DNA of 64,000 nucleotides from Candidatus Heimdallarchaeota archaeon (GCA_030668875.1 DAOVER010000005.1:26597-90596), one strand, 5' to 3'. Positions 38,855 to 59,261 are shown, numbered from the stretch's first letter. A program made the numbers and translations. Notes: a model not told the origin generated them from the letters alone.

Positions 38855-41389
38855 CTATTTTTTTGGAGAGCTTGGATAAGTTCCGATTGGCATTAGCACT
38901 CGCTTTACACTAGAGACTATACCGTGTTCCTTTTCAGGAAGAGTTATTGCATCAATCTGTGCTTCACCTAATGCAACCAATTCATTCTTCAAGGTATAAA
39001 TCGCTACCATGTCGCCTGCTTTGAATTCTTCTGAATACCTTGAAACACCTGGTAAAGCTAATGGGGCACCATGACAGATAGTATTAACCGCACTGTCTTT
39101 GATAATAACTTGTGGTATATGTCTCACCCCATATTCCATAGGTAGAATAATGTTTCGTAAGGGATTTTCATCTTTTTCTTCTCTATACCATGCAAAAGCA
39201 TCATATAAATCATGGAGAGTGGATAAGAAATCATTTTCCGAAAATGGTCCAGAGCGCGTTCGTCTAAGTTCCTTCATATGAGCGCCACACGATAAACTTT
39301 GTCCAATATCATGGCAATTAGAAGACACAAAACCTGTTTCAATGAGAAAATTATGAGTTTTTGGTACAGTCATATCATAAACATAACCAGTACTTTGGAC
39401 ATTCTCAATTGATTCTATTTTTTCAATAATGAAATCATCCAGTTCTGGTAACATTATGTGTGTAGAAGCAGTTTTGTAGAACCCTCGCGTCATAGGGATA
39501 TTTTCTTTTAAAATTCTATCCAAATTTCCACCCATTATTTTTTTCAATTCTGTTTTATGGGAAATTAAATAATTCGCAAAATGAAAACCAATATGATATT
39601 TATCTCCATATTCATGATCAGAATTCAGTTCTTCGAACTCAGTGAATTTTCTGATTTTCTCTGGATGGTTAGAACCAATTTCATTGATGAATTTCAACTC
39701 TGCACCTATCGTACCAACAGACACTATATACATTGTAGTGATATAATTCTTAAAATTAACTTCTCTTGAAAAAATAGTATTTTCAATTTCTAATTTAAGT
39801 AGTAATTTATGAAGTATTATTGCTTCACTTCTGTTAACCGTGTATAAAGAAATACGAGATTTAACACTATGAGAATATGTTTTTATTTGTACAGACCCAT
39901 CCCCATCAAAATAACCTCGTAAGTAGGAACAAATCAATTTAGGTTCAAGTTGGAGCAAAGGAGAAAAATCAGCATTCTTTTTTGGGCTTCTTATTCCTAA
40001 AGATGCTGCTATAGTAGCAAGAAGAGAGTTTGTAAGAGATACACCCCAAACACCATTTTTATCTTGATTAACCGAATAATGTGAATTTGGGAATAATTCT
40101 TTGTAAATTTCAACATACTTATCAATTAGTTCCTTATTTGTATTATTAAAAATTAATCTTGTATAACGTACTGTATTTTTCTCTTTTGAATTATTTCCAT
40201 CTGAAGCAATTAATCCTAAAAGATAAAATAAAGATTCATTTAGCTCTCTTAGCTTAATGATTTGACCTTTTACTTGCTTAAATCTATAAATTTGTTCTTT
40301 AACATCTTCATATATTCCAGCTAGTTTAAGATGTTTTATTTTTATCGAGTAAGAAGAGTTTGAAACAAATGGCTGCCTACTAACATCTAGTTTTCTGCTC
40401 ATTTCTCTAATACTACCATATTTTTTAATGAAGGCGTTTTTACATTTTTCCTTTATTTCATCTTGTTCTATAAGGTACTCATCATCCAAAAGATCTGACA
40501 CAATTAGTTTTTTACTAGTTAAGTTTGGTTTAAAACTTTTAACTAAAAAATCACCAACTCTTAATTTTCTAGCTTCAGTCATATTATAACCAACATCTGT
40601 AGATTTCAACATTTCATGGTCTGGTGTAATAATTATTGAAATACCAGTTTTCATTTTTAGTTTAATTAAAACTGGAGGGGAAGGGATGGTTTGAACTGCA
40701 GATGGATCTTTTTGATCTATTTTTCCATCAACAAAAGAAAAGATTGTTTTTGGACTTTCAACGAAATCTTTAGCTGAAACTGATCCTTCAGCTGTAAGAA
40801 TCTGAGTATTAGGATGTAAACAATATTTTCTAACATAAAATCCTGCTTGAGAGCTTATCCTAAAAAGAACTTCTCTTTCCCTTATATCAAGAATCTCTGA
40901 ATTATAGATGGTTCGAATTCTTAATACTCTTTTTACACTTGCCCTTAATGGGGGTCTTTGATACAAATCACCAACATAATCACCAACAATAGATCTTATT
41001 CTTTCTTCATCAATATCGGCGTGTAATCGCATATTTCCAACGTATTCCTTTCCAGCGAGGAGAAGTGTATCCAATATTCGAGTTGCTTTTCCTAAAGCCG
41101 TAGGAAGAACACCGGTTACCTGTGGGTCCAAGGTTCCAGAATGACCCGCTTTTGGAATGCCAAGAATCTTTTTTACATAACTAACTACTTCATGGCTAGT
41201 TGGATTAGGAGGTTTGTCCAAGTTGATGATACCATAATTCAATAATTCTGCAATTGTTCGATTTGAAGGCTTTTTTCCCCATTTAAAATCAGTTGTATCT
41301 CTGGAAAGTATCTTTAAGGGGTACTTATTGTCATCAAATGATAACTTTGGGGTGGAAAAAACTAATGTCATGATATCATCACGGAGCAC
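38855..41389 (-). CDS. cbf5: tRNA pseudouridine synthase Cbf5/TruB interrupted by a large intein
   Basis: TruB motif GHSGTLDP, C-terminal PUA domain, and the conserved Y.R..CHDIG split by 502 aa. Confidence 0.85.
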   Translation of the reverse strand: MLRDDIMTLVFSTPKLSFDDNKYPLKILSRDTTDFKWGKKPSNRTIAELLNYGIINLDKPPNPTSHEVVSYVKKILGIPKAGHSGTLDPQVTGVLPTALGKATRILDTLLLAGKEYVGNMRLHADIDEERIRSIVGDYVGDLYQRPPLRASVKRVLRIRTIYNSEILDIREREVLFRISSQAGFYVRKYCLHPNTQILTAEGSVSAKDFVESPKTIFSFVDGKIDQKDPSAVQTIPSPPVLIKLKMKTGISIIITPDHEMLKSTDVGYNMTEARKLRVGDFLVKSFKPNLTSKKLIVSDLLDDEYLIEQDEIKEKCKNAFIKKYGSIREMSRKLDVSRQPFVSNSSYSIKIKHLKLAGIYEDVKEQIYRFKQVKGQIIKLRELNESLFYLLGLIASDGNNSKEKNTVRYTRLIFNNTNKELIDKYVEIYKELFPNSHYSVNQDKNGVWGVSLTNSLLATIAASLGIRSPKKNADFSPLLQLEPKLICSYLRGYFDGDGSVQIKTYSHSVKSRISLYTVNRSEAIILHKLLLKLEIENTIFSREVNFKNYITTMYIVSVGTIGAELKFINEIGSNHPEKIRKFTEFEELNSDHEYGDKYHIGFHFANYLISHKTELKKIMGGNLDRILKENIPMTRGFYKTASTHIMLPELDDFIIEKIESIENVQSTGYVYDMTVPKTHNFLIETGFVSSNCHDIGQSLSCGAHMKELRRTRSGPFSENDFLSTLHDLYDAFAWYREEKDENPLRNIILPMEYGVRHIPQVIIKDSAVNTICHGAPLALPGVSRYSEEFKAGDMVAIYTLKNELVALGEAQIDAITLPEKEHGIVSSVKRVLMPIGTYPSSPKK
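39317..40822 (-). other. intein (502 aa) with LAGLIDADG homing-endonuclease domain inside cbf5
   Basis: Starts with Cys (CLHPNTQIL), ends ...GFVSSN before the +1 Cys of CHDIG. Carries LLGLIASDGN and LRGYFDGDGS LAGLIDADG blocks. Confidence 0.7.
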
Positions 41390-42527: not shown

Positions 42528-43247
42528 TCATTTGTTTGTCTTAGATTGAGGTTTGTTCTTTGCAAGTTGTTCTTTTTTAGAAACAGTTGCTGTCTTTAAA
42601 GGTTCAATTTTTTTGCTCTTTTTCTTTGTATGAGTTGCTCCAGAGGGAGTTGCTCCAAATATTCTACTAAGCAATGAACCAAAAGCAAAAGATACCATAA
42701 AATACCAGAGAGTAAAAGGCGCTTTTGAGTATCCATGATATTTTAGGGGTAAAGTTGTATCCACTACACCAGATGGGTATGATATACCAGATACTTGGAA
42801 CCATGGATTTCCTATCCAGGGAAAATCACCCAGATTAAAGGGTAACCATGCATAGTTATGATCAGTTGTAAAAGCGGTTCTAAGTATAGCAAATAAAATC
42901 AAGAAGGGAATGGTTGTGATAAGCATTGGTTTCATTCTTTTGAACATCATGGAGGATTGTAATTTCTTTACTCTTTCTTCATCTCTTTTGACACTCAACC
43001 ATAATTTCTTATCAGCGGTTTGCATTGCTGTTTTTCTCTTTTGATTCCAATCGTTAACTTTCTGCATACTTTCTTTTAATGCATCAGTATCAAGTATCAA
43101 TCGAGTAGCCAGTGTAGATATGCTTGCAAGCATGATTGAAGTTAGGGCTATAAATAGTGCAGAGTTAGGAAGTTGATTCCATCCCATACTAGTTATCCAT
43201 TCTGCAATTCCTGTAAACCATGGGTCCCAAAATGCCATATAAATCAC
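42528..43247 (-). CDS. DUF106-family membrane protein (Oxa1/YidC-superfamily insertase-like) with Lys-rich tail
   Basis: Three TM helices, in the expected synteny position. Confidence 0.55.
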   Translation of the reverse strand: MIYMAFWDPWFTGIAEWITSMGWNQLPNSALFIALTSIMLASISTLATRLILDTDALKESMQKVNDWNQKRKTAMQTADKKLWLSVKRDEERVKKLQSSMMFKRMKPMLITTIPFLILFAILRTAFTTDHNYAWLPFNLGDFPWIGNPWFQVSGISYPSGVVDTTLPLKYHGYSKAPFTLWYFMVSFAFGSLLSRIFGATPSGATHTKKKSKKIEPLKTATVSKKEQLAKNKPQSKTNK

Positions 43248-44240: not shown

Positions 44241-45695
44241 GTGAATTACATGGTTTCAAAGTTCTTGATGCTATTCAAACCGTTTCAACGTTTTACCTTT
44301 GAGGTAAAGAAGCCAGCAAGAAAACCTTCTTTTAAAAGAAAGTTAGCTTGGACCTTCGGAATCCTAGCCCTCTATTTAGCTATGCTAAATATTCCTATTT
44401 TCGGTATACCTGAATCAGGTGGAACCGATCCCTTCTTCGCCATGAGGGCAATATTAGCTTCACAAAGAGGAAGCTTAGCAGAATTAGGTATAGGACCTAT
44501 TGTAACTGCTGGTTTGATTATGCAGTTACTTGTGGGATCACAAATTATCAAAGTTGATTTTACTAATCCTGAAGAACGTGCTCTATACACCGGAACACAA
44601 AAAATACTTGCTATATTGATGACCCTATTCGAAGCTTTAGCATATATTCTTGGTGGAGCTTATGGAGAGTTAGGTTTCCAAGCACAAATGATTGTATTAT
44701 TGCAATTAATTGTTGCAGGTTTTACCATTCTTCTTATGGATGAAGTTATCCAGAAAGGTTATGGACTTGGAAGCGGTATTAGTTTATTCATTGCTGCAAG
44801 TGTTTCATATACTATCTTTGATGGCATGTTCAGTTTAACGCAAGAAAGAATTGGAGGTTTTGATTGGTACAGAGGTTGCGTTCTCGCATTCTTTCAAGGT
44901 ATCTTCAAAGAAAATCCAGACATACTAACACCACTCAGTAGACCTGGTAGAACCCCCGATGTAATTGGTTTACTGGCAACAATAGTTGTTTTTGCAATGG
45001 TTATCTATGTAGACTCTATGAAAATTGAGATACCTGTCCAACACAGCCAATATAAGATGCCAGCCAGATATCCAATAAAATTCTTATATACGTCAAATAT
45101 CCCTGTAATCCTTGTAAGCGCCTTATTTGCAAACATCTACTTCGTTTCAAACCTAATGCACAACTCTTGGAGTGATATAACAACGGGTTATCAAGGATTC
45201 TTGGTCGACTTTTTCGGTAGATGGGATACGATAGAAGGCACGGAACAACTAACTCCAGTTTCGGGGCTAGCAGCTTTTACAACGGCACCGTATGGACCTG
45301 AACAAATTGCGGAGCAACCGTGGCATGCCCTAGTGTATTTACTATTAATGGTTGCACTTTGTGGTATCTTCTCGCGTATTTGGATAGATACGGCTGGGAT
45401 GAGTTCAAAAAATGTTGCGAAACAACTGTTAGATGCAAATATGCAAATACCTGGTTTTAGGCGTAATCCAAGGATTGTAGAAAGATATCTAGAAAGATAC
45501 ATTCCTACAGCAGCCTGGCTCGGAGGTTTCTTTATAGGTGTTCTAGCAGCAGTAGCGGACTTTCTGGGAGCTCTTGGTACGGGTACTGGTATTCTGTTAA
45601 CAACGGGTATTCTCCGTCAGTACTATGAAATCTTCGCTAGTGAACAAATTAGTGAAACTGTTCCAGCTTTAGCTGGAATGTTAGGAATAAAATAA
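44241..45695 (+). CDS. secY: preprotein translocase SecY (canonical copy)
   Basis: NIPIFGIP...GIGPIVTAGLIMQLLVGSQI plug/TM2 region, 10 TM segments. Confidence 0.9.
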   Translation: MNYMVSKFLMLFKPFQRFTFEVKKPARKPSFKRKLAWTFGILALYLAMLNIPIFGIPESGGTDPFFAMRAILASQRGSLAELGIGPIVTAGLIMQLLVGSQIIKVDFTNPEERALYTGTQKILAILMTLFEALAYILGGAYGELGFQAQMIVLLQLIVAGFTILLMDEVIQKGYGLGSGISLFIAASVSYTIFDGMFSLTQERIGGFDWYRGCVLAFFQGIFKENPDILTPLSRPGRTPDVIGLLATIVVFAMVIYVDSMKIEIPVQHSQYKMPARYPIKFLYTSNIPVILVSALFANIYFVSNLMHNSWSDITTGYQGFLVDFFGRWDTIEGTEQLTPVSGLAAFTTAPYGPEQIAEQPWHALVYLLLMVALCGIFSRIWIDTAGMSSKNVAKQLLDANMQIPGFRRNPRIVERYLERYIPTAAWLGGFFIGVLAAVADFLGALGTGTGILLTTGILRQYYEIFASEQISETVPALAGMLGIK

Positions 45696-45735
45696 AATTC
45701 CTCCCCCTTTTTTTACTTTTATTTTAGTATCCCTA

Positions 45736-46686
45736 CTAAAGATGTAGGTCTATCACTTTGTTTGTCTCGATACTTTCGATAGATGCGAGAGCAATCTTTA
45801 AAGCTTTAAGCCCATCGACCGAAGTTACAACAGGTTGTTTATTTTCTAAACATGCTTCCGCGAAAGAATTCATTTCTCTGCTTAATGGTTCTTGCCAAGT
45901 TGATTTTGTATTTCGTAACCACTCATCGTCTTCAATGATATATTCTTGTGTGATGTAATCAGCTTCTACTATCCCTTGCTCACAAGTAAGCATCAATTTT
46001 CTATATCTGTGAGGTGTTAAATAATTAGATTCAATGAAACCAGTCAACCCATTATCAAAATCAAGTAATATTTCAGCATAATCAATATAGCTATGACGTA
46101 ATTTTCCTCCACGAGCATACACGGAAATAGGATCTTTTGAAGTTAAATATCTGAAAGCATCAATATCATGGATACTCACATCACGAATAACATCAACATC
46201 TTTTAACCTATCAGGCCAAAATGGGCCTAGCCTTCTTGCACTCAACAATACAAGTTCACCTAGTTCCCCACTCCCTATGAGAGTTAGTGATTTGCCAATT
46301 ATTGGATTGAAACGTTCGATAAAACCTACAGACACAATAACGTTTGAGCTTTTAGCTGCATCAATAATTTTCTCTGCTTCTTCTAAGGTACTTGTCATAG
46401 GCTTCTCTATCATAACATGTTTTCCATGCTCTATAGCTTTGAGCGCTATTTCCCCGTGAGTAGAAGTAGGAGAAGCTATACTAACCGCATCTATTTCATT
46501 TAGACTCAATAGCTCATCTAAATCTGAAAAAGCTCTAGCACGATGTATCACTGCCAACTCTTTAGCCTTTTCAAGCTGAATATCATAAATACCAATAAGG
46601 TTTGTTTTTTCCATTTCTTTAAAAGCTCTTGCGTGGTTTTTACCCCAGCTTCCTACTCCGATAACTGCCATATTGAGTTTTTTCAT
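45736..46686 (-). CDS. Gfo/Idh/MocA-family NAD(P)-dependent oxidoreductase
   Basis: MAVIGVGSWGKNHARAF Rossmann N-terminus, EKP motif. Confidence 0.8.
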   Translation of the reverse strand: MKKLNMAVIGVGSWGKNHARAFKEMEKTNLIGIYDIQLEKAKELAVIHRARAFSDLDELLSLNEIDAVSIASPTSTHGEIALKAIEHGKHVMIEKPMTSTLEEAEKIIDAAKSSNVIVSVGFIERFNPIIGKSLTLIGSGELGELVLLSARRLGPFWPDRLKDVDVIRDVSIHDIDAFRYLTSKDPISVYARGGKLRHSYIDYAEILLDFDNGLTGFIESNYLTPHRYRKLMLTCEQGIVEADYITQEYIIEDDEWLRNTKSTWQEPLSREMNSFAEACLENKQPVVTSVDGLKALKIALASIESIETNKVIDLHL

Positions 46687-46808
46687 CGAATCACTACCAA
46701 CTACATAAATTAATTTTACTCGCTTTGAGTAAACATAAGTGAATATTTAAAATTTTTTGTATGATTATTCTAAAAAATGAATTAGAGTAAATAAAAAGAA
46801 AAGAAAAA

Positions 46809-47267
46809 TTAGTTAGAGCTGCTTAGTTGAACTTTGCCACCAGCAGACTCTATTTTCTTAATTGCTCTTTTACTAGCTTCAGCAACTACAATATTCATCG
46901 CAGTGTTGACTTCGCCTTGAGCAAGAAGTTTAGTATAACCAAGCTCTGTCAAATTGACTTCGTATTTAGCACCCTTCTTTGTGACTTTTCCTTCACGTTC
47001 GAGGGTTGTGACCATTGAGTCTAAATGAGAGACATTGATTACAGTGTTGTCTTTTATGGATTCTCGAGGGCGGATGAAACCATGTTTTCCAATTGGAGGA
47101 CGCAAACCTTTAATCGTTTGAATCCAGTGATGTGACTTAGGAGCAGCTTTACCTACTCCCCCGCGCATACCACTTTTTCTGTGGGTTCGTACAACTCCCC
47201 AACCATGGGTTCTGTATCCGCGACGTTTTCCGGTTTTCTTCTTAGTTCTAACTGTCATTTTGATCAC
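46809..47267 (-). CDS. rpl15: 50S ribosomal protein L15 (uL15)
   Basis: GYRTHGWG...RGG.G pattern. Confidence 0.85.
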   Translation of the reverse strand: MIKMTVRTKKKTGKRRGYRTHGWGVVRTHRKSGMRGGVGKAAPKSHHWIQTIKGLRPPIGKHGFIRPRESIKDNTVINVSHLDSMVTTLEREGKVTKKGAKYEVNLTELGYTKLLAQGEVNTAMNIVVAEASKRAIKKIESAGGKVQLSSSN

Positions 47268-47782
47268 GCCATCCTTACAATAAGCTCGTTTATAGCTGAG
47301 CCTCTATAACCTAAATCTCCGCCATCTGCAAAGCTTCTTTTAACAGATTTGTAACCTTTTCTTGCAGGATGTAATCTGAAAAATTTCTTTAGCTTAGGAA
47401 CCTTTTGAATTATAGTTTCTCCTGTCATTAGAGCTTTTGAAAGTGACTTTATGGTTGGATATTCAGTATTTTCCTTAACAAACTTATCAGTCAATCTAAT
47501 TTTTCCTTCAGACTCTCCTCTTTTCCTTAGGACATGTTCTAAAGCTTCTTGGTTTATTTCACCCCAAGTTACATGATCTTTTGCACGCTTTAGCATACCA
47601 AGGGTTGAAGGAGTATTAAGAAATAATGACATATAGTTTGTCTTACGAATGTTTAACATATCCAAATTTTGTTGAACCTTATAGAAGACGTTAATTCTTC
47701 CTCTAATTCTAATAACTGCCAACAATTTTAGAGTATCTTGTTTTTCACTCATGTTAATCACTTTCTTTATCTTCGTGTCCAA
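47264..47782 (-). CDS. rpl30: 50S ribosomal protein L30 (uL30)
   Basis: AVIRIRG...L.ML.. pattern. Confidence 0.8.
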
Positions 47783-48408
47783 TCGTATGGAGCCATGATT
47801 GAATAGGTGTTTTTCAAAGCTTCAAAAGTTGCTTTTGCAAAATTTGAAGTAGTTCGTGTTTCACCAAATGTTTTGCTCCAAACATCAGATATTCCTGCTA
47901 ATTCTAGAACAGTTTTAGCAGTGTTTCCAACGACTAATCCTAAACCTCTGGGTGCTGGATAAAGAATAACCTTTGTAGACCCTACCTTACCTGTTGATTT
48001 GAAAGGAACAGTGTGTGGCCCTCCACAGTTGCATTCCCACGAACCGCATCCTCTACGAACAGGTCTGATGTTCAATTTGGCATTAACCATCGCTTTCTTA
48101 ATAGCTGGACCTATTTCTTTGAGTTTTGCTTCACCTACACCAACATAACCGTTTTTGTTTCCAACAACAACAGTTGCACGGAATTTACGTTTTCGACCCG
48201 CGTCTGTTTGTCTTTGAACAAGGCTTATATCAATCACATCGTCCTCTAGGGTGTCACCAAGCAGAATATCAATTATTTCAGGTTCTGCTAAAGGAAGACC
48301 TTGTTGGAATAGTTCATCGATAGTTGTAATTCTACCATCTTTTACTAATCTTCCAACACGAGTTCGAGGTTCCCATTCTTCTAAATCTAAAAACATTTTA
48401 TTGCTCAT
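47767..48408 (-). CDS. rps5: 30S ribosomal protein S5 (uS5)
   Basis: GRK.KF.A.VVVGN.NGYVG and AKL.I.PV.RG.GS motifs. Confidence 0.9.
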
Positions 48409-48418
48409 CTTTTATACC

Positions 48419-49066
48419 TCATTCCATTGAATCAATTTTTGATTTTGTCTCTTCAAAATACTCGGTTATCTTTTCAGGTTTCTTACTTGCTGCTAAGTAT
48501 TTGGCAAAGTATCTGTTATACTTGTTTTGATCTTCTTTAGCTAAGAGTTTTGCATATGATTGAATATGATCCCCTCTAATTCTATCTTCAGAAGGCAACA
48601 TAGTTTCATTGCAAGGAACATCAACACCTGCGTCAACAACGCCTTTGAGGGTTGCAAAGATTTTTGTTCCAGAGTATGCGGTGTGTGTTCCGATATCCAG
48701 AATAGCATCCTTGATTTTAGCTTTCAAAGCTCTTTTTCCAGCAAGATAGCCTGTAAGGTACGATGCAGGCAAATTGGATGTTGCGATATCCCAACCATAT
48801 TTTTTGAGATCACCTGATGTTATCTGAATGTAAGTTTGATCTCCACCAATTTTTGACATAACAAATTGTATCAATACTTGTTTATTGGATGCTCTTGTTA
48901 CAACCCTTATTTTACCTGATTTCAATAATCTTTTACGCTGACCATAATCAGTTTTAAGCTCTCTTCGTCTTCTAAAAGGCACTCTATACAGAGGTCCTTG
49001 CCTTTTCATCTTTTGTTGTAATTTTCTTCTCTTCTTTGGTCCTCTTTTACTTCTTCGACTTGACAT
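48419..49066 (-). CDS. rpl18: 50S ribosomal protein L18 (uL18)
   Basis: RLVVRASNK-like pattern, synteny. Confidence 0.85.
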   Translation of the reverse strand: MSSRRSKRGPKKRRKLQQKMKRQGPLYRVPFRRRRELKTDYGQRKRLLKSGKIRVVTRASNKQVLIQFVMSKIGGDQTYIQITSGDLKKYGWDIATSNLPASYLTGYLAGKRALKAKIKDAILDIGTHTAYSGTKIFATLKGVVDAGVDVPCNETMLPSEDRIRGDHIQSYAKLLAKEDQNKYNRYFAKYLAASKKPEKITEYFEETKSKIDSME

Positions 49067-49079
49067 AACTTAACACCTC

Positions 49080-49544
49080 TTATAATTCAGGAAGTCTCTT
49101 CTTAGAGAGACCGTGTTCGGCTATATAATTTCGGAGATATCTCACAGAACGGAATAAACCACCTTTTGACTGTAAATACAGTTTTCGGTAGGTTGTAGTA
49201 TCAATGTATCCTTCGTCCCTTAATTTCTTCAAGAACTTTCTCTGGGCACGGATTTTCCCAATCCATCTATCTTTCTTTGAAAGTCTGGAATATTTTGGAC
49301 CTTTACGGCTACCAGTACCAATTCTTTGACCTCTCCTTTTCTTTGCTGCTACAGCTCGAGCTCGTCCTCTACTAACACCTTGAATTTTCCTTTTCCTAAT
49401 ATCGCCATCATCAATATGACGTTTTACATCTTCTCTAGTAATAGCTAGAGAAAGATCGTATAGGCTATCAGGATCAATTTTAACTCTATTGGATCCAACT
49501 TTGAGGATTTTTGCTGCTAATCTTCTTTGTGTTTTAACGTCCAT
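49080..49544 (-). CDS. rpl19e: 50S ribosomal protein L19e (eL19)
   Basis: QRRLAAKILKVG N-terminus. Confidence 0.85.
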   Translation of the reverse strand: MDVKTQRRLAAKILKVGSNRVKIDPDSLYDLSLAITREDVKRHIDDGDIRKRKIQGVSRGRARAVAAKKRRGQRIGTGSRKGPKYSRLSKKDRWIGKIRAQRKFLKKLRDEGYIDTTTYRKLYLQSKGGLFRSVRYLRNYIAEHGLSKKRLPEL

Positions 49545-49559
49545 AATTCTAACCTCACA

Positions 49560-50105
49560 TTAATTTTCTGCTTTGTCAGAATCTGCTAATTCATCGAGAT
49601 CAAGATCCTCATCTAATTCGAAATCGTCTTCGAAATCGTCACCAATATCATCTTCAAGTAATTCGTATTCTTCCTCAAGCGATGTTGCGTCAAGCATATC
49701 ACCAATTTCATCTATAGTTGCAGGTGGGTTCAAAACCTTAAGTCCCAAATCAGCTGCATTGTCTAGAATCATTTGCCTCTTACGAGCACCAACGGTGTGC
49801 TTAATCATAACTGCTTCAGTTTCTTTATCTATTTCTTCAAGTTCATAGATATTAGCAACATGAACTACTTGATAACCCGAAGGATGCAGACCTCTGACAG
49901 CTTTTGGTCCCCGGTATCCTATGCTGACCATAGCAGGATAACCTTTGCGTTTTTCTTTCATTTTATTATCAATACCCTTAGGTTTACGCCAGCTTTTTTT
50001 TACTCTCTTGTAACGCCAGCTTTCTTGCCTAACAAAGTTAGGTCTACGAGCACTGATTTCTTTACGCTTTTTTAGTAAACGTTTCTTATCGACTGTCATA
50101 GGCAC
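49560..50105 (-). CDS. rpl32e: 50S ribosomal protein L32e (eL32) with ~50-aa acidic C-terminal tail
   Basis: RRPNFVRQESWRYKRV...GYR core. Confidence 0.8.
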   Translation of the reverse strand: MPMTVDKKRLLKKRKEISARRPNFVRQESWRYKRVKKSWRKPKGIDNKMKEKRKGYPAMVSIGYRGPKAVRGLHPSGYQVVHVANIYELEEIDKETEAVMIKHTVGARKRQMILDNAADLGLKVLNPPATIDEIGDMLDATSLEEEYELLEDDIGDDFEDDFELDEDLDLDELADSDKAEN

Positions 50106-50271
50106 TCACAGTAGAATGTTACCTTATTTTGGTTAACCTATCATCTGGCTGTAGTTTTTAATACTTTTTATTGGTAAGAAAAAATGAAGTGAAAAGTTAT
50201 ACTAAACACAAATTTGGGGAAAAAATTAAAAAATTTGCAAAGGTTTAAAATGTTTTAAGAGGAAATCAATA

Positions 50272-51651
50272 ATGGAATCGAAGAAATTGGACTTATTTGA
50301 TTCAATGTCTTCAAGAGTAAGTATCCCATTTAATCTTAAGGTAATTTATACTTCTTTGTTTGCTATTCTTTATCTCATATTTCTAAATATACCCATTTTC
50401 GGCGTGCCTAGTTCAGGAGGAACTGATCCTTTTTTTGCTTTCAGAGTCATTATGGCATCTCAGAGAGGAAGTTTGGCAGAGTTTGGTATTTTTCCGCTTG
50501 TATACGCATCTTTCATTATGCATGTATTGGTGGGGTTAGGAATTTACAAAATGGATTTCACACAAGCAGAGAAGAGAAAGAAGTTTTCGATTATAGTTAC
50601 TATTCTGGGGTTGTTTTTCTCTCTCACATCATCTTTATGTTATGTAATTTTTGGTGCTTATGGAGAGATAAGTGTTGATCAAGGTTTTATAATCATTCCT
50701 CAATTATTGCTTGCTAGTACTCTTATAATAATAATTGACTATTTCATGAGAAAAGGGTACGGATTGAGCTCTGGTGTAAGCTTGTTTATAGTAGTCAGTG
50801 TTTCACGAACTATCTTTGATGGTATGTTCAGTTTAAGTCAATTAAGAGTTGGAGGTTTTGATTGGTACAGAGGTTGTATTCTCGCATTCATTCAAGGTAT
50901 CTTTAAAGAAGACCCAGATATACTGACACCACTCATCAGACCGGGTTTAACACCTGATTTTCTGGGATTCATTTTAGCAATTATAGTGTTTGGAATGACG
51001 ATATTCTTTGTATCCTTTACCATAAAGAGACCATTCTATCAGAGAGATCAAATTACAAAATCATCGATGACAGCTCAATCATTATACAACTATTCTAATT
51101 CCGTAGTAATAACCAGTTCATTTTTTGCAAATATTTCCTTCGTTTCAAATATGATGTTTAATACATGGAGCTCATTTTCAACGGGATTTAGAAGTTTGTT
51201 GGTTAGTTTCTTCGGTAGATGGGAGACGATAGAAGGCACGAATCAGCTAGCTCCAGTTTCGGGGCTAGCGGCTTTTACAACCCCTCCATATGGGGTTGAA
51301 CAAATTACACAACATCCGTGGAATACTTCGGTGTATTTTCTATTTATGATTGTATATAGTATCCTTATGTCTAGATTATTAGTAAAAACATCAGGAAAGG
51401 AAAATGTAAGTATTCTAAAAGGAACAGACATATTTAATCAAGAAAAATATGAAGTCACTAATTTCCCTTTAGCATTATTAGCTGGTTTTTTCATGGGGTT
51501 TTTAGCAGGGTTTTTTAACATCATTTCTCCATTGGGAACAGGAGTAGGTATTCTAATAACAACGTGCATACTGAAACAACTCTTGGACATCATTTCCCAT
51601 GAAAAATCCAAATGGAATGAATCAAGAAAAAATACGGAAATTAATAAATAA
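50272..51651 (+). CDS. divergent SecY paralog (SecY2-like), antisense to the flanking r-protein genes
   Basis: NIPIFGVPSSGGTDPFFAFRVIMASQRGSLAEFGI aligns with canonical SecY, but the plug/TM2 region is divergent (FPLVYASFIMHVLVG). 459 aa. Confidence 0.75.
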   Translation: MESKKLDLFDSMSSRVSIPFNLKVIYTSLFAILYLIFLNIPIFGVPSSGGTDPFFAFRVIMASQRGSLAEFGIFPLVYASFIMHVLVGLGIYKMDFTQAEKRKKFSIIVTILGLFFSLTSSLCYVIFGAYGEISVDQGFIIIPQLLLASTLIIIIDYFMRKGYGLSSGVSLFIVVSVSRTIFDGMFSLSQLRVGGFDWYRGCILAFIQGIFKEDPDILTPLIRPGLTPDFLGFILAIIVFGMTIFFVSFTIKRPFYQRDQITKSSMTAQSLYNYSNSVVITSSFFANISFVSNMMFNTWSSFSTGFRSLLVSFFGRWETIEGTNQLAPVSGLAAFTTPPYGVEQITQHPWNTSVYFLFMIVYSILMSRLLVKTSGKENVSILKGTDIFNQEKYEVTNFPLALLAGFFMGFLAGFFNIISPLGTGVGILITTCILKQLLDIISHEKSKWNESRKNTEINK

Positions 51652-51697: not shown

Positions 51698-52258
51698 TTA
51701 TTCGCTTGCCCACTTCCAGATTCCATCCATAAATGTTTCAGGATCTTTCTTTCTCTTACCCCTTAATCTACAGATTTCTTTCATGTTGGTAGTGGTTTGT
51801 CCTACAGCTTCTTTATCGATACCTTCTATGATAACATCATCTTTGTCAACCTTAACAGTTGTATCATCTCCTACAATAGGAACAATCAAAGGTTTTCTTC
51901 CTCCATAGAGGTTCTTGATTGTTATTAGACGTTTCTTGTTATCAGGTTCAACTGTAATTGGAAAATGGCTGAAGATTATTTTTGATCTATAGACATAACC
52001 TTCTGTTACACCTATCATCATGTTTTTGAGATGACCTACAACGGCAAGCATTTTTGCCTTTTTCTTTTTGTCAACGAAATAGGATTTGACATTGATTTTA
52101 TCTTTTGACTTCTTTAGTTCTACCTTGAAACCCTCGAAGTTTTTGATAAGTTTACCTCTTTTACCTTCCATGGTAACTATAGTTCCGTCAATAGTTATCT
52201 TCAAATCCTCAAGTAATTCAACATCTCGTTCAATATATACTTGTTTCATTATCATCAC
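51698..52258 (-). CDS. rpl6: 50S ribosomal protein L6 (uL6)
   Basis: Two-domain L6 pattern, synteny. Confidence 0.85.
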   Translation of the reverse strand: MMIMKQVYIERDVELLEDLKITIDGTIVTMEGKRGKLIKNFEGFKVELKKSKDKINVKSYFVDKKKKAKMLAVVGHLKNMMIGVTEGYVYRSKIIFSHFPITVEPDNKKRLITIKNLYGGRKPLIVPIVGDDTTVKVDKDDVIIEGIDKEAVGQTTTNMKEICRLRGKRKKDPETFMDGIWKWASE

Positions 52259-52648
52259 CTAATATATGTAAGCTAATAGCCTTCCACCTATTCCACGTTC
52301 TTTTGCATCCTCGTGGGTTATTACACCTTCAGATGTTGTCATTACAAGGATACCAAAACCTCTTGCAGGTAGGTACTTTCTTTCTTCATCTTCTAGTTTA
52401 TCATGTTTAACTGGAAATCGAGGTTTGATAACACCACATTTGTTAATCCTGCCCATCAATTGTATTTCGAACATTCCTCCACGATGATCTTCTATATATT
52501 CAAGTTCACCGAGATATCCTGCTCTTTGAACAGTTCTGAAAACGTTCGCAATTATTTTACTAGCGGGTTTAACAGTGACGGTTTTCTTACCTTTTTTTTC
52601 AGCGTTAAGTATTGCAACTAAAGCGTCTGCTAATGGATCCATTTGCAT
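52259..52648 (-). CDS. rps8: 30S ribosomal protein S8 (uS8)
   Basis: DPLADAL..I.NAE N-terminus. Confidence 0.9.
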   Translation of the reverse strand: MQMDPLADALVAILNAEKKGKKTVTVKPASKIIANVFRTVQRAGYLGELEYIEDHRGGMFEIQLMGRINKCGVIKPRFPVKHDKLEDEERKYLPARGFGILVMTTSEGVITHEDAKERGIGGRLLAYIY

Positions 52649-52662
52649 TTTTCTTTACCTCC

Positions 52663-52830
52663 TTAGCCTCCTCGACTTCCTGTTTTCTTGAAGCCGATTT
52701 TGGAATATATTTCTCTAATACAGCGTCTGCAAACATACAAACCACCACGTCTAATGATTGCCTGATGTGTTCCACAGCGTCTGCATTTTCTTGAGCCTTT
52801 TCCATATTTAATTTCTCTTCGTTCTTGCAT
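52663..52830 (-). CDS. rps14: 30S ribosomal protein S14 type Z (uS14), 55 aa; missed by the ORF track (below cutoff)
   Basis: Translated by hand: MQERREIKYGKGSRKCRRCGTHQAIIRRGGLYVCRRCIREIYSKIGFKKTGSRGG. CxxC...CxxC zinc ribbon. Sits between L5 and S8 as expected. Confidence 0.8.
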   Translation of the reverse strand: MQERREIKYGKGSRKCRRCGTHQAIIRRGGLYVCRRCIREIYSKIGFKKTGSRGG

Positions 52831-52839
52831 ATCCGTCAC

Positions 52840-53406
52840 CTAAATTATTTGTACCTCAAACTCTGTTCTAACAAATTCCATAGTTTCAGATGGGGTTAGT
52901 AAGTGCTTCTTTGGTATTTTCTTTCGTTTGTGTTGCCTGTACTTTAACCTATAACCTGGTCTTTCTAACTTAACAACGACATTGAAACCGATTGTTCCTA
53001 GCATTGGATCAAAAGGAGCATTTTCAATATCAACGTGCTCAGTTATACCAAAAGCAAAATTGCCTTGTTGGTCAAAGGAAGATTCCTTCACTTGATAATC
53101 ATGAGCATAAAGAAGACGCTTCAACATTATCTTGGCTTCTTCTCCACGTAATGTTACTAAAGCTGCGATAGACTCTCCTTCTCTTATACCAAAACCTCTT
53201 TCAGATCTTTTAGCTACACGTTCAACTGGTTCGCATTTGGTAATTTGACGAAGAATCTCTTTTGTTCTTTCAAATCTAGGACCTGATTCACCAACACAAC
53301 TATTGATGATTAAAGCCTTCAATCGAGGTTTTCGCATTGGATTCTTTTTCCATTCATCAGCAAATTGCAAAGGAATTGGTTCTTGCTCGATTACTTCGTC
53401 ACTCAT
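52840..53406 (-). CDS. rpl5: 50S ribosomal protein L5 (uL5)
   Basis: Family pattern, synteny. Confidence 0.9.
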   Translation of the reverse strand: MSDEVIEQEPIPLQFADEWKKNPMRKPRLKALIINSCVGESGPRFERTKEILRQITKCEPVERVAKRSERGFGIREGESIAALVTLRGEEAKIMLKRLLYAHDYQVKESSFDQQGNFAFGITEHVDIENAPFDPMLGTIGFNVVVKLERPGYRLKYRQHKRKKIPKKHLLTPSETMEFVRTEFEVQII

Positions 53407-54161
53407 TTCTTATCACCTTCGTTACCAGCAATTGTTACACTTGGAGTATCATTGCCCACAATGAAAATATATCTGAACAGTGTAACGAAAATCTCACCAT
53501 CAGGTGTCTTTATGGTCGCTGTTTTAGTTTTTTGTGTTCCATGAGAACTGATTTCTTCAATAGTTCCATGCTTACCCATCCACCTTCCACTAGTTACAAT
53601 ACCATAATTACCTATTTTCAATTCGTATTTTTCTAAAATCTTTTGATCTGGTAAAGATATCTTAACTGTGTCATGTGTATGGTAAGGAACACTATCGCTT
53701 TCAGATTTCTGTAAGATGATGTTTCTACCATCATGGAGATTTAGTTGTGTTAGACCTCCTTTGAGTGTAGTCTTATTCTTAATTTGGCAGAGTTTAACTT
53801 TTGTTTCATCTTCCTTAATTGGAATTGTCCTTAGACCTTTCTTCGGAGTATATACTAATCTATAATGTTCTTTTATTTTTGGGAAGGAAATAACATCCAT
53901 GAAACCTAGTGGGTATTTTCTGTTTGTTTTTATTTTTCCATCTATGAGAACATTTCTTTCAACCAATATACGTTTAACTTCACTCATGTTTCGAGCTACT
54001 CGGAACATATCACGGAGCATAATGGCCATTGGAATACATTCATGTGCAGCATGAGGACCAGGAGAGGGTTTAACCGTATAAGTATTAGCTTTCTTTTCAA
54101 TAGGTATATGTTTTGAAACAACGAATCTCTTCAGATGTCGTTTTCCACCGCCTTTTGTCAT
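53403..54161 (-). CDS. rps4e: 30S ribosomal protein S4e (eS4)
   Basis: GGKRHLKR N-terminus, KOW region. Confidence 0.9.
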   Translation of the reverse strand: MTKGGGKRHLKRFVVSKHIPIEKKANTYTVKPSPGPHAAHECIPMAIMLRDMFRVARNMSEVKRILVERNVLIDGKIKTNRKYPLGFMDVISFPKIKEHYRLVYTPKKGLRTIPIKEDETKVKLCQIKNKTTLKGGLTQLNLHDGRNIILQKSESDSVPYHTHDTVKISLPDQKILEKYELKIGNYGIVTSGRWMGKHGTIEEISSHGTQKTKTATIKTPDGEIFVTLFRYIFIVGNDTPSVTIAGNEGDKK

Positions 54162-54934
54162 ACTAATTCCTCCTTTTTATCTGTTTTCTCAGAAAGCAAA
54201 TCTTCTGCGTTAGCACTCATAGTTTTTGCTGTACCAGGACCAATACCAGGTACTTTTGAAAGCTCTTCTGAGGTTGCTTTGGCAATCTTATCAACAGTAT
54301 CAAAACCATTTTCTTTGAGAAGCATTGCGGTTTTAGCACCTATGCCCTTAATCATAGATATGTCAAGGTCAGAAACTTTGGTCTCCTCCTTGGGAGCTGC
54401 TTCTACAACATCTTTAGGAGCATCAGTTTCGTCAAGATCTTCGAATTCTTCAAAAATATCCTCTTCAAGATCTTCATCTTCTTCTTCGACATCAGATTCT
54501 TCTAAAGGCTCATCGAATTCATCAAATAGATCTTCAGTTAATTCTTCTTCAGTAAGTTCTTTTCTAGAACGTCTCTTAATGATCTCCCTTCTCTTTTTAT
54601 CACGTAAATTCAGAGAAGTAATTATGATGTTGCTTGGATGAACAGGAAAACTAGAGACTGTACCATCAGCTTTTTCCTTACTATATCCTTCGATATGAAC
54701 TGAATATTTCTGAGGTAAAACACGGATTACTTTACCTTTAATCTCTTGGTCTTCAGATTTAGCTCTGAAAACCAGTACTTTGTCATCTTTATGTACAGGA
54801 AGACGTCGAATACCATATTTATTTCTCAATTCACGTGAGAGAAGAGCAGTCATTTGACGATTGCGAAGATGTAAAGGAGCAGTATAATACCTCTTACGTT
54901 GTTTACGAGGTTGTTTTGTTTTTGTATATCTCAT
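54158..54934 (-). CDS. rpl24: 50S ribosomal protein L24 (uL24) with acidic linker and C-terminal helix-hairpin-helix module
   Basis: KOW DDKVLV..GK..G.V core, then D/E-rich stretch, then IKGIGAKTAMLLKENGFDTV...VPGIGPGTA. Confidence 0.85.
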   Translation of the reverse strand: MRYTKTKQPRKQRKRYYTAPLHLRNRQMTALLSRELRNKYGIRRLPVHKDDKVLVFRAKSEDQEIKGKVIRVLPQKYSVHIEGYSKEKADGTVSSFPVHPSNIIITSLNLRDKKRREIIKRRSRKELTEEELTEDLFDEFDEPLEESDVEEEDEDLEEDIFEEFEDLDETDAPKDVVEAAPKEETKVSDLDISMIKGIGAKTAMLLKENGFDTVDKIAKATSEELSKVPGIGPGTAKTMSANAEDLLSEKTDKKEELV

Positions 54935-54945
54935 TTATATTTCAC

Positions 54946-55362
54946 CTATACTATTATTGAAGCTTGATGTGCAATCTTTGGCCACTTTTCGGCTGCCTCT
55001 TTAGCAATTGGTCCTCGAATTTCGCTTCCGAGAGGATCTCCTACTTCGTTGGTAAGAACAACAGCATTCTCTTCAAATTGTATCCAATCACCAGATCGTC
55101 TACGGTATGGAGAACGTTGTCGAACAACTACTGCTGGAAAAATTTGTTTTCTCCTTTGTGGAGTGCCTTGTTTAACAGAAACGACAACCATGTCAGAAAC
55201 AGAGGCTTTTGGTACTCTGTTTAGTCTTCCTCTATAATTCTTTACGGCAATTATTTGAACTATTCTAGCACCAGAATTATCTGCGCTACGAAGTCTTGTC
55301 CCTACAATTAAGCCCTTTGTAATATGAACTTGTGTTCGTCCTACGGATTTTCTTTTTGCCAT
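54946..55362 (-). CDS. rpl14: 50S ribosomal protein L14 (uL14)
   Basis: ADNSGAR...V pattern. Confidence 0.9.
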   Translation of the reverse strand: MAKRKSVGRTQVHITKGLIVGTRLRSADNSGARIVQIIAVKNYRGRLNRVPKASVSDMVVVSVKQGTPQRRKQIFPAVVVRQRSPYRRRSGDWIQFEENAVVLTNEVGDPLGSEIRGPIAKEAAEKWPKIAHQASIIV

Positions 55363-55371
55363 GATACCACC

Positions 55372-55740
55372 CTAATTTAGTTTTTGAACCACAACAAAAC
55401 TTACTGTTTTTGCAAGTGGTCTGCATTCTGCTGCTAAAACCATATCGCCTTCTTTGACATTAAGGCAAGGGGGGTTGTGTGCAGAAATCTTTCCGTGAGC
55501 ACGTTCATATCTACGAAACTTTTTCACATACTTCAAGAAATCTCTTCTAATTACCACGGTACGTCTCATTTTATCGGAAATAACTTTTCCAGTAAAAATA
55601 CGACCCCTTGTTGGAAGTTGACCATGAAACGGACATCTTGGGTCATCGCACTCAGTAGCGGGAGGTTCGACTCCTTGAATACCTACATTACGTACTTTAC
55701 TCATTTGTTCTTTCACCTCGGTAATGCGTCTTGCACCCAT
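55372..55740 (-). CDS. rps17: 30S ribosomal protein S17 (uS17)
   Basis: CPFHG...GRIFTG.V.S.KM..T.V. Confidence 0.9.
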   Translation of the reverse strand: MGARRITEVKEQMSKVRNVGIQGVEPPATECDDPRCPFHGQLPTRGRIFTGKVISDKMRRTVVIRRDFLKYVKKFRRYERAHGKISAHNPPCLNVKEGDMVLAAECRPLAKTVSFVVVQKLN

Positions 55741-55958
55741 GTTTCCCCATCGTTTAGAAAGGATAGAGGAACAATCTTGGCTCCTTAATCAAGGAGTAAG
55801 ACGTCAATCACCTATAACTGATTCACAGTTATTTTTGTGATATTAGCAATCCTTTCCCCGTTATAATCTTTTTAATACTTTTCATTGTTAAGAGAAAAAT
55901 ATCGCAAGCGAGAAAAAGGGAAATTGTGGAAATGAAGTATCCTAAAGTATTGGTTAGG

Positions 55959-56714
55959 TTAACCAAAAAAGGTAACCATACCCGCTTGAATAAGGAGAAA
56001 TGTAACTAGATAAAGCAGTGCAAGGAAACAAATGTAACCGATAATAACAAGAGGATATCGAACCCAATATCTTATTTTTTTATAATCTTCAACTTTCCTA
56101 TGGGTACTAAACAACTTTGGAAAAAACATTCCGGTATTTAGACGATATTCAACATAATCATCACCAAGTTTCTTTATTAGTTTCCATTCTTCATAGTCTG
56201 ACCAAAAAAATAAGATAATACTAAAAACAGACCAAGAGAGTATGTCGCCAAACCTGATGCCAAGATCAGTTGACCAAGGAACAAAGAGCGAAAGAGACAA
56301 GGAAATGAGAATTAGACCGAGATGTTGGGGGTGACGGATTAATCGATAAGGTCCTTTTTTAACAAGACTCTCTTTTTTAAGGATAGAATTTGCTAAAGAA
56401 ACAATACCATAAACAATGAGAACAAGACCAATTAGAAAAAGTAAGAATTCAAAAACGATTAACACGATGACCCCAGGAGTGTATTCAGTACCCTGTAAAA
56501 CAATCCATGACCAACCCCAGTTTTCGGTATTAAAGAAGAAAACGACTTTCCAAGAAAGTAGAGCAAATGGATAAAGAAAGAACATAGGAGCAAGTATAAT
56601 GATGATGGTACGAAAATAGGACCAAACTATTGTTAACATATACAAAAATCTAGTTATGATATCACTGACTTGCTTCTTAATTGGTTCTGCCATGATGTGA
56701 TTCAATGATATCAC
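55959..56714 (-). CDS. isoprenylcysteine carboxyl methyltransferase (ICMT)/phospholipid-MTase-family membrane protein
   Basis: GPYRLIRHPQHLG motif, multiple TM helices. Confidence 0.55.
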   Translation of the reverse strand: MISLNHIMAEPIKKQVSDIITRFLYMLTIVWSYFRTIIIILAPMFFLYPFALLSWKVVFFFNTENWGWSWIVLQGTEYTPGVIVLIVFEFLLFLIGLVLIVYGIVSLANSILKKESLVKKGPYRLIRHPQHLGLILISLSLSLFVPWSTDLGIRFGDILSWSVFSIILFFWSDYEEWKLIKKLGDDYVEYRLNTGMFFPKLFSTHRKVEDYKKIRYWVRYPLVIIGYICFLALLYLVTFLLIQAGMVTFFG

Positions 56715-58739: not shown

Positions 58740-59261
58740 TTGATTCATTGTATTACTTGGATATTCAATTTGAGATGCAGCAAGGGACAAAAATTTATTA
58801 TAATTGTCTTTCCCTTTTTACTCATGCCTCCTTCCAATGATTCTGAAGAACAAGTTAAAATTGGTGCAGATTTGTTATTGAAGGGTTGGGTGATGCTCAA
58901 TCGCGCATGTCCTACCTGTTATTTACCACTTTACAAAAAACAAGATAGAGTAGTTTGTGTGAAATGTAAGCAAGATTATGTTTTAGTTGATTCACCCTCG
59001 GAAATACCACAACAACAGAGAAATAATGCTCAACAGAAAGTGATCTCAGCTCCATATAGTAATTCTTCACCCCAATCCAATCTATCTTCACTTGACTTTT
59101 CGTCACTCCCTCCAGCATTGGTTGATACAGCTAAAATCTTACTTGAGAAAATAGAAATGCTCAATGTCCAATTAAAGGAAACAACTGATCCTAAAGAAAT
59201 CACGGATATTTCTAACTCTATTCGTTCTCTTGTTGATTCTATTCGTTCTCTGACTTCTTAG
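58740..59261 (+). CDS. zinc-ribbon protein resembling the Sjogren-syndrome/scleroderma autoantigen-1 (p27) family; true start possibly the internal Met near 58824
   Basis: LLLKGWVMLNRACPTCYLPLYKK...CVKC resembles the LL.GA.ML...CP.C..PLF motif. Confidence 0.35.
   Translation: MIHCITWIFNLRCSKGQKFIIIVFPFLLMPPSNDSEEQVKIGADLLLKGWVMLNRACPTCYLPLYKKQDRVVCVKCKQDYVLVDSPSEIPQQQRNNAQQKVISAPYSNSSPQSNLSSLDFSSLPPALVDTAKILLEKIEMLNVQLKETTDPKEITDISNSIRSLVDSIRSLTS

Follow-up and report, generated by a model that had tools for sequence, protein, structure and literature searches.

A second, divergent SecY gene between the L6 and L32e genes of Heimdallarchaeia: an old and dispensable paralog family with a remodelled lateral gate

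SecY/Sec61α is encoded by a near-universal single-copy gene in archaea. The 64-kb stretch of Candidatus Heimdallarchaeota DNA analysed here (the window, to which all positions refer unless another contig is named) carries two such genes, the canonical SecY_A (copy A; 44241–45695, plus strand) and a divergent paralog, SecY_B (copy B; 50272–51651, plus strand, 459 amino acids), labelled WIN_B when compared with its relatives elsewhere. The genes are arranged in the order S17-L14-L24-S4e-L5-S14-S8-L6, copy B, L32e-L19e-L18-S5-L30-L15, a Gfo/Idh/MocA oxidoreductase gene (GFO) and copy A, beyond which follow a methyltransferase, a DUF106 (EMC3/TMCO1-like) gene, L34e, cmk, L14e and Cbf5. Two blocks of ribosomal-protein (r-protein) genes, both on the minus strand, flank copy B: L15-L30-S5-L18-L19e-L32e (46809–50105), recognised by Pfam matches of L15 and L32e and by Pfam-labelled orthologs in the loci L004 and L043, and L6-S8-S14-L5-S4e-L24-L14-S17 (51698–55740), in which L24 carries a helix-hairpin-helix (HhH) domain. 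Copy B and L6 are placed tail-to-tail with a spacer of 46 nucleotides (nt). The original prediction, made from the window alone, had described two full-length SecY open reading frames (ORFs) antisense to the minus-strand r-protein genes; their coordinates and strand, and the order and orientation of every r-protein gene around them, proved correct. Its attribution of the DNA to Lokiarchaeia did not, since the nearest named homologs and genomes are metagenome-assembled genomes (MAGs) of Candidatus Heimdallarchaeota/Heimdallarchaeaceae, with r-proteins 88–100% identical to those of the window, and the lineage is Heimdallarchaeia.

The two SecY copies share 49% identity over 439 residues (E=1e-147), and SecY_B also matches solved Sec61α in sequence (E=2e-52). 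Against the NCBIfam models NF006341 and TIGR00967, SecY_B scores 190 bits (cut-off 300) and 92 bits (cut-off 254), respectively, which places it under both curated equivalog cut-offs. The Pfam Plug_translocon domain (cut-off 22.1) is found with 40.5 bits in SecY_B and 41.2 bits in SecY_A, showing that the plug, transmembrane (TM) segment TM2a, is present. The AlphaFold2 (AF2) model of SecY_B (predicted local distance difference test score, pLDDT, 77; predicted template-modelling score, pTM, 0.79) superimposes in Foldseek on rabbit Sec61α (7tm3) with a TM-score of 0.82 and E=8e-26, and on Methanocaldococcus jannaschii SecY (1rh5) with TM-scores of 0.75–0.83, and the order of its secondary-structure elements is the same as in the model of SecY_A. 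The pseudo-symmetric ten-TM channel fold of the SecY/Sec61α superfamily is thus present in copy B, with hidden Markov model (HMM) scores under the curated SecY cut-offs. Low pLDDT values in the cytosolic loops of the SecY_B model were considered as a sign of loop decay and dropped, because the SecY_A model is weak there too. The region immediately upstream (50188–50271, plus strand) is unique to copy B in flank alignments and absent from the relatives L011 and L014; it contains a TATA-like element, TTTAAAAT (50244–50251), and a GAGGA motif 7–11 nt before the ATG, both with consensus-level resemblance only. A scan for sigma-70 promoters and terminators gave no enrichment, such a scan being inapplicable to archaea, and Rfam gave no match over the whole window.

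SecY_B belongs to a family, here called B-types as opposed to the canonical A-types, that consists of nine sequence clusters. Word-indexed searches of 5.8 billion proteins returned WIN_B, P0014, P0015 and P0018; P0047, P0050 and P0057 came from a profile search run without an index over 1.84 billion representatives, and P0195 and P0199 from a third homology search. Two diagnostic substitutions, a bulky residue just after pore-ring I84, where Gly/Ser is otherwise universal, and a proline in place of A444, pick exactly these nine among 203 retrieved sequences, the truncated members P0018 and P0050 being scorable at one of the two sites only. In neighbour-joining (NJ) trees, built from simple distances, the B-types form one clade (200/200 replicates with four members, 100/100 with nine) on branches 5–10 times longer than those of the A-types. 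The clade adjoins the Heimdall A-types, and the sequences from eukaryotes cluster on their own, outside the Heimdall A+B group. Additionally, the B-types share derived residues at positions that are invariant in A-types, eukaryotes and other archaea. Their genomic position is similarly shared, with B tail-to-tail with L6 in six of the eight lineages of known context and the exact L32e–B–L6 layout found in the window, in L004/L039 and in L043–L045, three distant hosts; P0195 and P0047 have been relocated away from this site. Assembly GCA_013166775.1 contains both P0195 and a canonical A-type (L023), so that A and B co-occur in a second genome as well. These data show that the B family comprises old SecY/Sec61α paralogs descended from one duplication of canonical SecY, so far found only in a Heimdallarchaeial group, with an ancestral site that lay antisense to rpl32e and rpl6, between the two and tail-to-tail with the latter.

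The claim that archaea very seldom have a second SecY is borne out by the mere nine clusters from the searches of 5.8 billion and 1.84 billion proteins, and no report of a paralogous SecY from Asgard or any other archaea was found in the full-text literature, where coverage is incomplete and the result is absence of evidence only. Scans of genome contigs and metagenomes with two peptide patterns each returned only A-types or already known B-types; since these patterns missed divergent members such as P0195, the lack of a detected B in MAGs such as L015 and L016 is weak evidence of absence. Some MAGs may also be incomplete. P0195 itself (L041 10001–11287; JABLTJ010000009.1) is labelled at NCBI only as 'hypothetical protein HGN29_07375' and lies among unannotated neighbours with no r-protein gene near, and B-types may be under-recognised in annotations. 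A JGI contig (L035 184–912) carries an A-type SecY fragment that turns unrelated after about residue 164, for which a frameshift, a chimeric contig or a truncated copy are all possible.

Residues of SecY_B were aligned onto Sec61α, and a site table was drawn up over the B-types. Residues I73, V77, V169, I173, V279 and I429 of WIN_B, all aliphatic, correspond to Sec61α I81, V85, I179, I183, I292 and L449, the pore-ring positions. The Sec61 pore ring comprises six residues (PMC4081569). Both the plug and all six aliphatic pore-ring positions are kept across the B family. Within TM2b of copy B (residues 70–88, EFGIFPLVYASFIMHVLVG; 50479–50535, plus strand, placed by the Sec61α mapping), the pore-ring residues I73 and V77 are retained, whereas Leu is replaced by F71, Gly by F74, the gate Thr by Y78, and Gln by H84. 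The divergence in the plug/TM2 region noted in the original prediction is confirmed, and the TM2 difference that it quoted between the copies, FPLVYASFIMHVLVG versus GPIVTAGLIMQLLVG, is correct.

The polar cluster of the lateral gate consists of T87/Q129/N302 in yeast and T80/E122/N268 in M. jannaschii (PMC3518225). The equivalent residues are T89/E131/N298 in copy A and Y78/S120/N287 in WIN_B, and in the other B-types Leu or Ser at the first position, Leu or Phe at the second, and Val, Ile, Leu, Gly or Thr at the third. M68 of the apolar patch is changed to Phe in most B-types, G85, G118 and Q120, which are otherwise universally small or polar, are replaced by bulky or hydrophobic residues in all scorable ones, and A444 by Pro in 9/9. 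According to Trueman et al., hydrophobic substitutions at Q129/N302 stabilise the closed channel, so that weakly hydrophobic signals are translocated less and integration of a signal-anchor protein is spared, whereas polar rearrangements of the cluster have the opposite, prl-like effect (PMC3518225).

The cytosolic loops that dock the ribosome are altered as well. In Sec61α, R273 and H404/R405 contact eL39, uL23 and 28S rRNA (Voorhees et al., PMC4081569), the contacts of H404/R405 being uL23 and 28S rRNA (PMC4081569). The basic residue of loop 6/7 equivalent to R273 is lost in 9/9 B-types; in copy B, alignments and the site table show that the conserved K..RYPIKFLYTSNIP motif of this loop and the start of TM7 (residues 250–279; 51019–51108, plus strand) is degraded to I..SMTAQSLYNYSNS. 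Only a remnant of loop 8/9 can be aligned in copy B (residues 372–398; 51385–51465, plus strand), its tip QIPGFRRNPRIV, with the equivalent of R405, having been deleted. Deletion of this tip with its universally conserved Arg is confined to WIN_B and P0057, seven other B-types keeping it, and the sister grouping of these two (56/100) is too weak to tell a shared loss from a convergent one.

Selection was assessed by the ratio of nonsynonymous to synonymous divergence (ω; Nei-Gojobori method, NG86). The value is 0.07 for SecY_A (window versus L011) and 0.05 for the neighbouring r-proteins, compared with 0.195 for two intact B genes (L002 versus L046; 0.044 for the adjacent L6 in the same pair) and 0.24 for an intact B against a repaired pseudogene, showing that B is under purifying selection approximately 3–5 times weaker than that on A. 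Of 314 alignment columns with a conservation of 95% or more in A-types, WIN_B retains 146, a figure within the range of eukaryotic Sec61α (137–172).

Besides evolving faster, B is lost repeatedly. Four independent assemblies (L006–L009) carry the same B pseudogene with three common lesions, namely an early TGA, an in-frame TAA and a 17-bp tandem duplication; judged by a disrupted ORF or an ω of about 1, this copy is the only pseudogene, and WIN_B is not one. In the closest relatives, L011 and L014, L32e adjoins L6 across a spacer of about 195–230 nt, forming a clean empty site whose flanks match the window up to ~50187 and from ~51651. The last 99 nt of copy B (51553–51651, plus strand) can nonetheless still be recognised in the sister genome L014 (15861–15961) as the scar of a deletion, the local alignment scoring 59 where the null averages 19 and peaks at 35 (0/300 shuffles reach the score), and B must thus have been present ancestrally and then deleted; no B remnant was detectable in the L011 spacer. 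Moreover, B-bearing lineages are scattered among B-less ones on a tree of L6 plus S8, which implies several losses. B is therefore dispensable, having been deleted in the closest relatives and turned into a pseudogene elsewhere. The notion that copy B was locally inserted, or wedged, into the r-protein cluster has to be abandoned, as its position is old and conserved and it is the close relatives that have lost it.

The DNA alignment of A and B is a mosaic, in which two segments stand out over an overall identity of 59%. Tract 1 (50809–50935, plus strand; 127 nt, TM5 and external loop 5–6) is 89% identical to SecY_A 44811–44937, and tract 2 (51211–51281, plus strand; 71 nt, external loop 7–8) is 91.5% identical to SecY_A 45213–45283. 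Their segment scores, 57 and 41, exceed the maximum of 34 obtained in 1000 permutations of codon columns, and in the core of tract 1 the identical codon is used at 0.93 of conserved residues. The synonymous divergence (dS) of A from B amounts to 0.59 within the tracts, with an ω of 0.23, and to about 2.1, that is saturated, elsewhere. When tract columns only are used, WIN_B groups with the A-types of the window's clade in 181/200 replicates and with other B-types in 0/200; the direction of gene conversion is from A to B. Since the tract dS exceeds the divergence between the window and L011 (0.32), the conversion is older than their split. Both tracts encode extracytoplasmic loops, with the gate, TM2/3/7 and the cytosolic loops lying outside them. 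A comparable pattern is seen between L036 (A-type) and P0014 (B-type) from the same metagenome, with a tract 1 nucleotide identity of 0.82–0.88 and a synonymous-codon identity of 0.76–0.93, suggesting that tract 1 (TM5–external loop–TM6) was converted independently in a second lineage, although it is not proven that L036 and P0014 derive from one genome.

Taken together, these observations define a SecY paralog family that is ancient, rare, dispensable and fast-evolving yet selectively maintained, with a remodelled gate, a conserved position, and recurrent conversion and loss. The explanation that accounts best for them, and that we regard as probable with some reservation, is that B is a putative non-essential accessory protein-conducting channel whose gate most likely responds otherwise than that of SecY_A. 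By analogy with the yeast mutants, the hydrophobic gate of most B-types would favour strongly hydrophobic signals or TM segments. With its ribosome-docking determinants lost, the B of the window would be incapable of canonical ribosome docking, and would act post-translationally, via another docking partner, or alongside SecY_A. In turn, the external loops being held matched to those of A suggests that both channels share extracytoplasmic partners.

Several points weigh against this explanation. The gate of WIN_B is Tyr/Ser/Asn and not hydrophobic, so the gating prediction for the family is not directly transferable to it. A local hmmscan gave Plug_translocon only for SecY_B, and no Pfam SecY (PF00344); a precomputed protein-database annotation lists PF00344.26 for the same protein, a discrepancy on account of which it was not relied upon. 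The promoter evidence amounts to resemblance to consensus, and a small-ORF/TM screen together with Pfam yielded no candidate for a second SecE/Sec61γ or Sec61β within the window. In several of the ω comparisons dS is near saturation. Long-branch attraction could inflate the support for the B clade in NJ trees based on simple distances, although synteny and shared derived residues argue against such an artefact. Finally, a patchy, repeatedly lost family with a rate as fast as that implied by the 146 positions retained also fits slow decay.

We can speculate further that a dedicated second translocon arose in Heimdallarchaeia, either ahead of eukaryotes or independently of them, in which SecY-B, with a hydrophobic, closed-biased gate and in some lineages no ribosome docking, would have a set of clients or a membrane domain of its own, its outer loops kept matched to SecY-A for common extracytoplasmic partners (for example OST/TRAP-like ones). 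It may export proteins post-translationally, insert very hydrophobic ones, or serve an internal membrane system. This proposal is tentative, and we consider it doubtful as a whole.

The chief rival to an accessory channel is that the copy B of the window is already a non-functional relic, an intact-looking ORF heading for loss and kept partly open by conversion from A. The absence of both canonical ribosome-contact determinants from WIN_B, its very long branch, the retention of just 46% of the A-conserved positions, the HMM scores under the curated SecY cut-offs, and the fate of B in sister genomes and in the pseudogene-bearing lineage would all agree with it. Yet the 459-codon ORF is intact in a genome of 35% GC and its loop 8/9 deletion is in frame, and the conversion tracts, which predate the split from L011, show an ω of 0.23 and not one near 1. 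Intact B genes elsewhere have an ω of about 0.2, the plug and six pore-ring positions are conserved, and P0057, which also lacks loop 8/9, is intact in three assemblies. A relic is on this balance rather unlikely, even if it is the most serious of the alternatives.

A recent, lineage-specific duplication of A, inserted between L6 and L32e, would explain why B is missing from the nearest relatives and why two of its segments are about 90% identical to copy A in DNA. It is very improbable and can be taken as already refuted: outside the tracts the A/B dS is saturated, B groups with the B-types of distant hosts in 200/200 replicates and never with its own A, the position between L32e and L6 is occupied in other lineages too, and the 99 nt of the B 3′ end kept in L014 mark the empty site as a deletion. 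Additionally, a search around copy B for terminal, direct and inverted repeats turned up nothing convincing. An assembly or binning artefact that joined fragments of two organisms, a possibility raised in the original prediction, is the least credible reading of all and is excluded, even though the window derives from a MAG and contig L001 of the Logan re-assembly of SRR26080963 stops 150 nt inside L32e, because that contig spans both B junctions with identical sequence, the flanks of copy B are collinear with L011/L014 on both sides, the GC content is even across the SecY/r-protein region, and the same L32e/B/L6 layout was assembled independently in the unrelated assemblies L004/L039 and L043–L045.

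The canonical copy, SecY_A, is identified by Pfam and NCBIfam matches (Pfam SecY, 231 bits; NF006341, the archaeal SecY model, 424 bits with a cut-off of 300) and by a score of 385 bits against mammalian Sec61α. It is 95% identical to the SecY of the MAGs L010, L011 and L014, and its AF2 model has a pLDDT of 76. The ATG at 44250 is the most likely start of translation, with 481 residues as in the ortholog P0002, in preference to the GTG at 44241. The gene is convergent with that of the Gfo/Idh/MocA oxidoreductase (45736–46686, minus strand; Pfam GFO_IDH_MocA, 121 bits), which had been described as inserted between L15 and SecY. This convergent pair is, in fact, found at every related locus in which the region downstream of SecY is visible, so that the oxidoreductase is an old feature of the clade and no local insertion. 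The ancestral collinear order (L15>SecY_A>GFO<MTase>DUF106>..., MTase being the methyltransferase) is seen in L015, and in most related genomes the entire block from SecY to Cbf5 is inverted relative to L15...S17. Only in the window's clade (L010, L011, L012, L014) is just the 2.5-kb SecY–GFO pair flipped, a clade-level rearrangement. No convincing inverted repeats were found flanking the flipped pair; as none were found around B either, nothing points to a mobile element or to an inversion mediated by repeats.

About 1 kb from SecY_A lies the DUF106/EMC3-TMCO1-like gene (42528–43247, minus strand; Pfam, 45 bits), which is Oxa1-superfamily insertase-like and belongs to the conserved block from SecY to L34e, the linkage being kept across related loci. 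The r-protein cluster is broken also upstream of S17 (55741–56714), where an ICMT/PEMT-like membrane protein replaces RNase P p29-L29-S3-L22; in L043 (8871–11193) the latter block is present and inverted. With breaks at several points, the r-protein superoperon of these lineages is evidently fragmented at several places.

Other features of the window include a Cbf5/dyskerin-like pseudouridine synthase of 844 amino acids (38855–41389, minus strand) that is interrupted by an intein harbouring a LAGLIDADG homing endonuclease (Pfam Intein_splicing, LAGLIDADG_3); its orthologs in L002 and L011 have about 338 amino acids and are intein-free. The L24 protein (54158–54934, minus strand; Ribosomal_L26 domain) continues into an acidic linker and the C-terminal HhH domain (HHH_5, 51 bits), a fusion found also in L001, L002 and L006 and absent from L004 and L043, in which L24 has about 190 amino acids. 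A Hef-like helicase-nuclease (DEAD/Helicase_C, ERCC4 and HhH domains; 59239–61719, minus strand) is located near the S17 end, as it also is in L001 and L043. The only GC-rich kilobase of the window (0.46, compared with about 0.35) coincides with an rve-family integrase/transposase gene with helix-turn-helix domains (29146–30078, minus strand), probably an insertion sequence of foreign composition.

Paralogous translocons occur in eukaryotes (Sec61/Ssh1) and in some bacteria (SecY2), and Heimdallarchaeia are the archaeal group nearest to eukaryotes. To our knowledge, there is no earlier archaeal example of a conserved second SecY family, and the one in Heimdallarchaeia would be the first known archaeal case, in the lineage closest to eukaryotes. 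The B family also represents a natural experiment on gating, in which the polar cluster is replaced and, in two lineages, the docking loop removed, while the plug and pore ring are kept. The recurrent A-to-B conversion, limited to extracytoplasmic loops, directs attention to regions in which A and B may depend on common partners. For annotation there is a risk that B-types are mislabelled as housekeeping SecY or, like P0195, as hypothetical.

Compared with canonical SecY/Sec61α (PF00344, NF006341/TIGR00967), B is alike in its ten-TM fold, plug and aliphatic pore ring. It differs in the lateral gate's polar cluster, in the apolar patch, and at G85, G118, Q120 and A444, as well as in the basic contact of loop 6/7, lost throughout the family, and in the loop 8/9 Arg, deleted in WIN_B. 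Whereas canonical SecY is universally retained and sits downstream of L15 in an spc-type cluster, B is found between L32e and L6 on the opposite strand, is dispensable, being absent or pseudogenised in several relatives, and has an ω 3–5 times higher.

The original prediction had likened copy B to the SecY2 of Gram-positive bacteria and to the Sec61/Ssh1 pair, a comparison that holds as analogy and not as homology. Like SecY2 of the SecA2-SecY2/Asp system (NF009082), B is a second divergent channel beside the essential housekeeping one, the likeness being functional; however, B has its origin within the Heimdall SecY lineage and is surrounded by r-protein genes with no SecA2, Asp or glycosyltransferase genes beside it, and NF009082 gave no match for B and only 36 bits for SecY_A (cut-off 353). 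Fungal Ssh1, in turn, resembles B in being a non-essential and rapidly evolving paralog of the α subunit of the main translocon, and was left out of the Sec61 alignment of Trueman et al. for its 'extensive divergence' (PMC3518225). The Ssh1 complex has been seen bound to the 80S ribosome in a solved structure (2ww9), whereas WIN_B is devoid of the loop 8/9 contact, and the two paralogs originated independently, the eukaryotic clade lying outside the Heimdall A+B group in the NJ trees.

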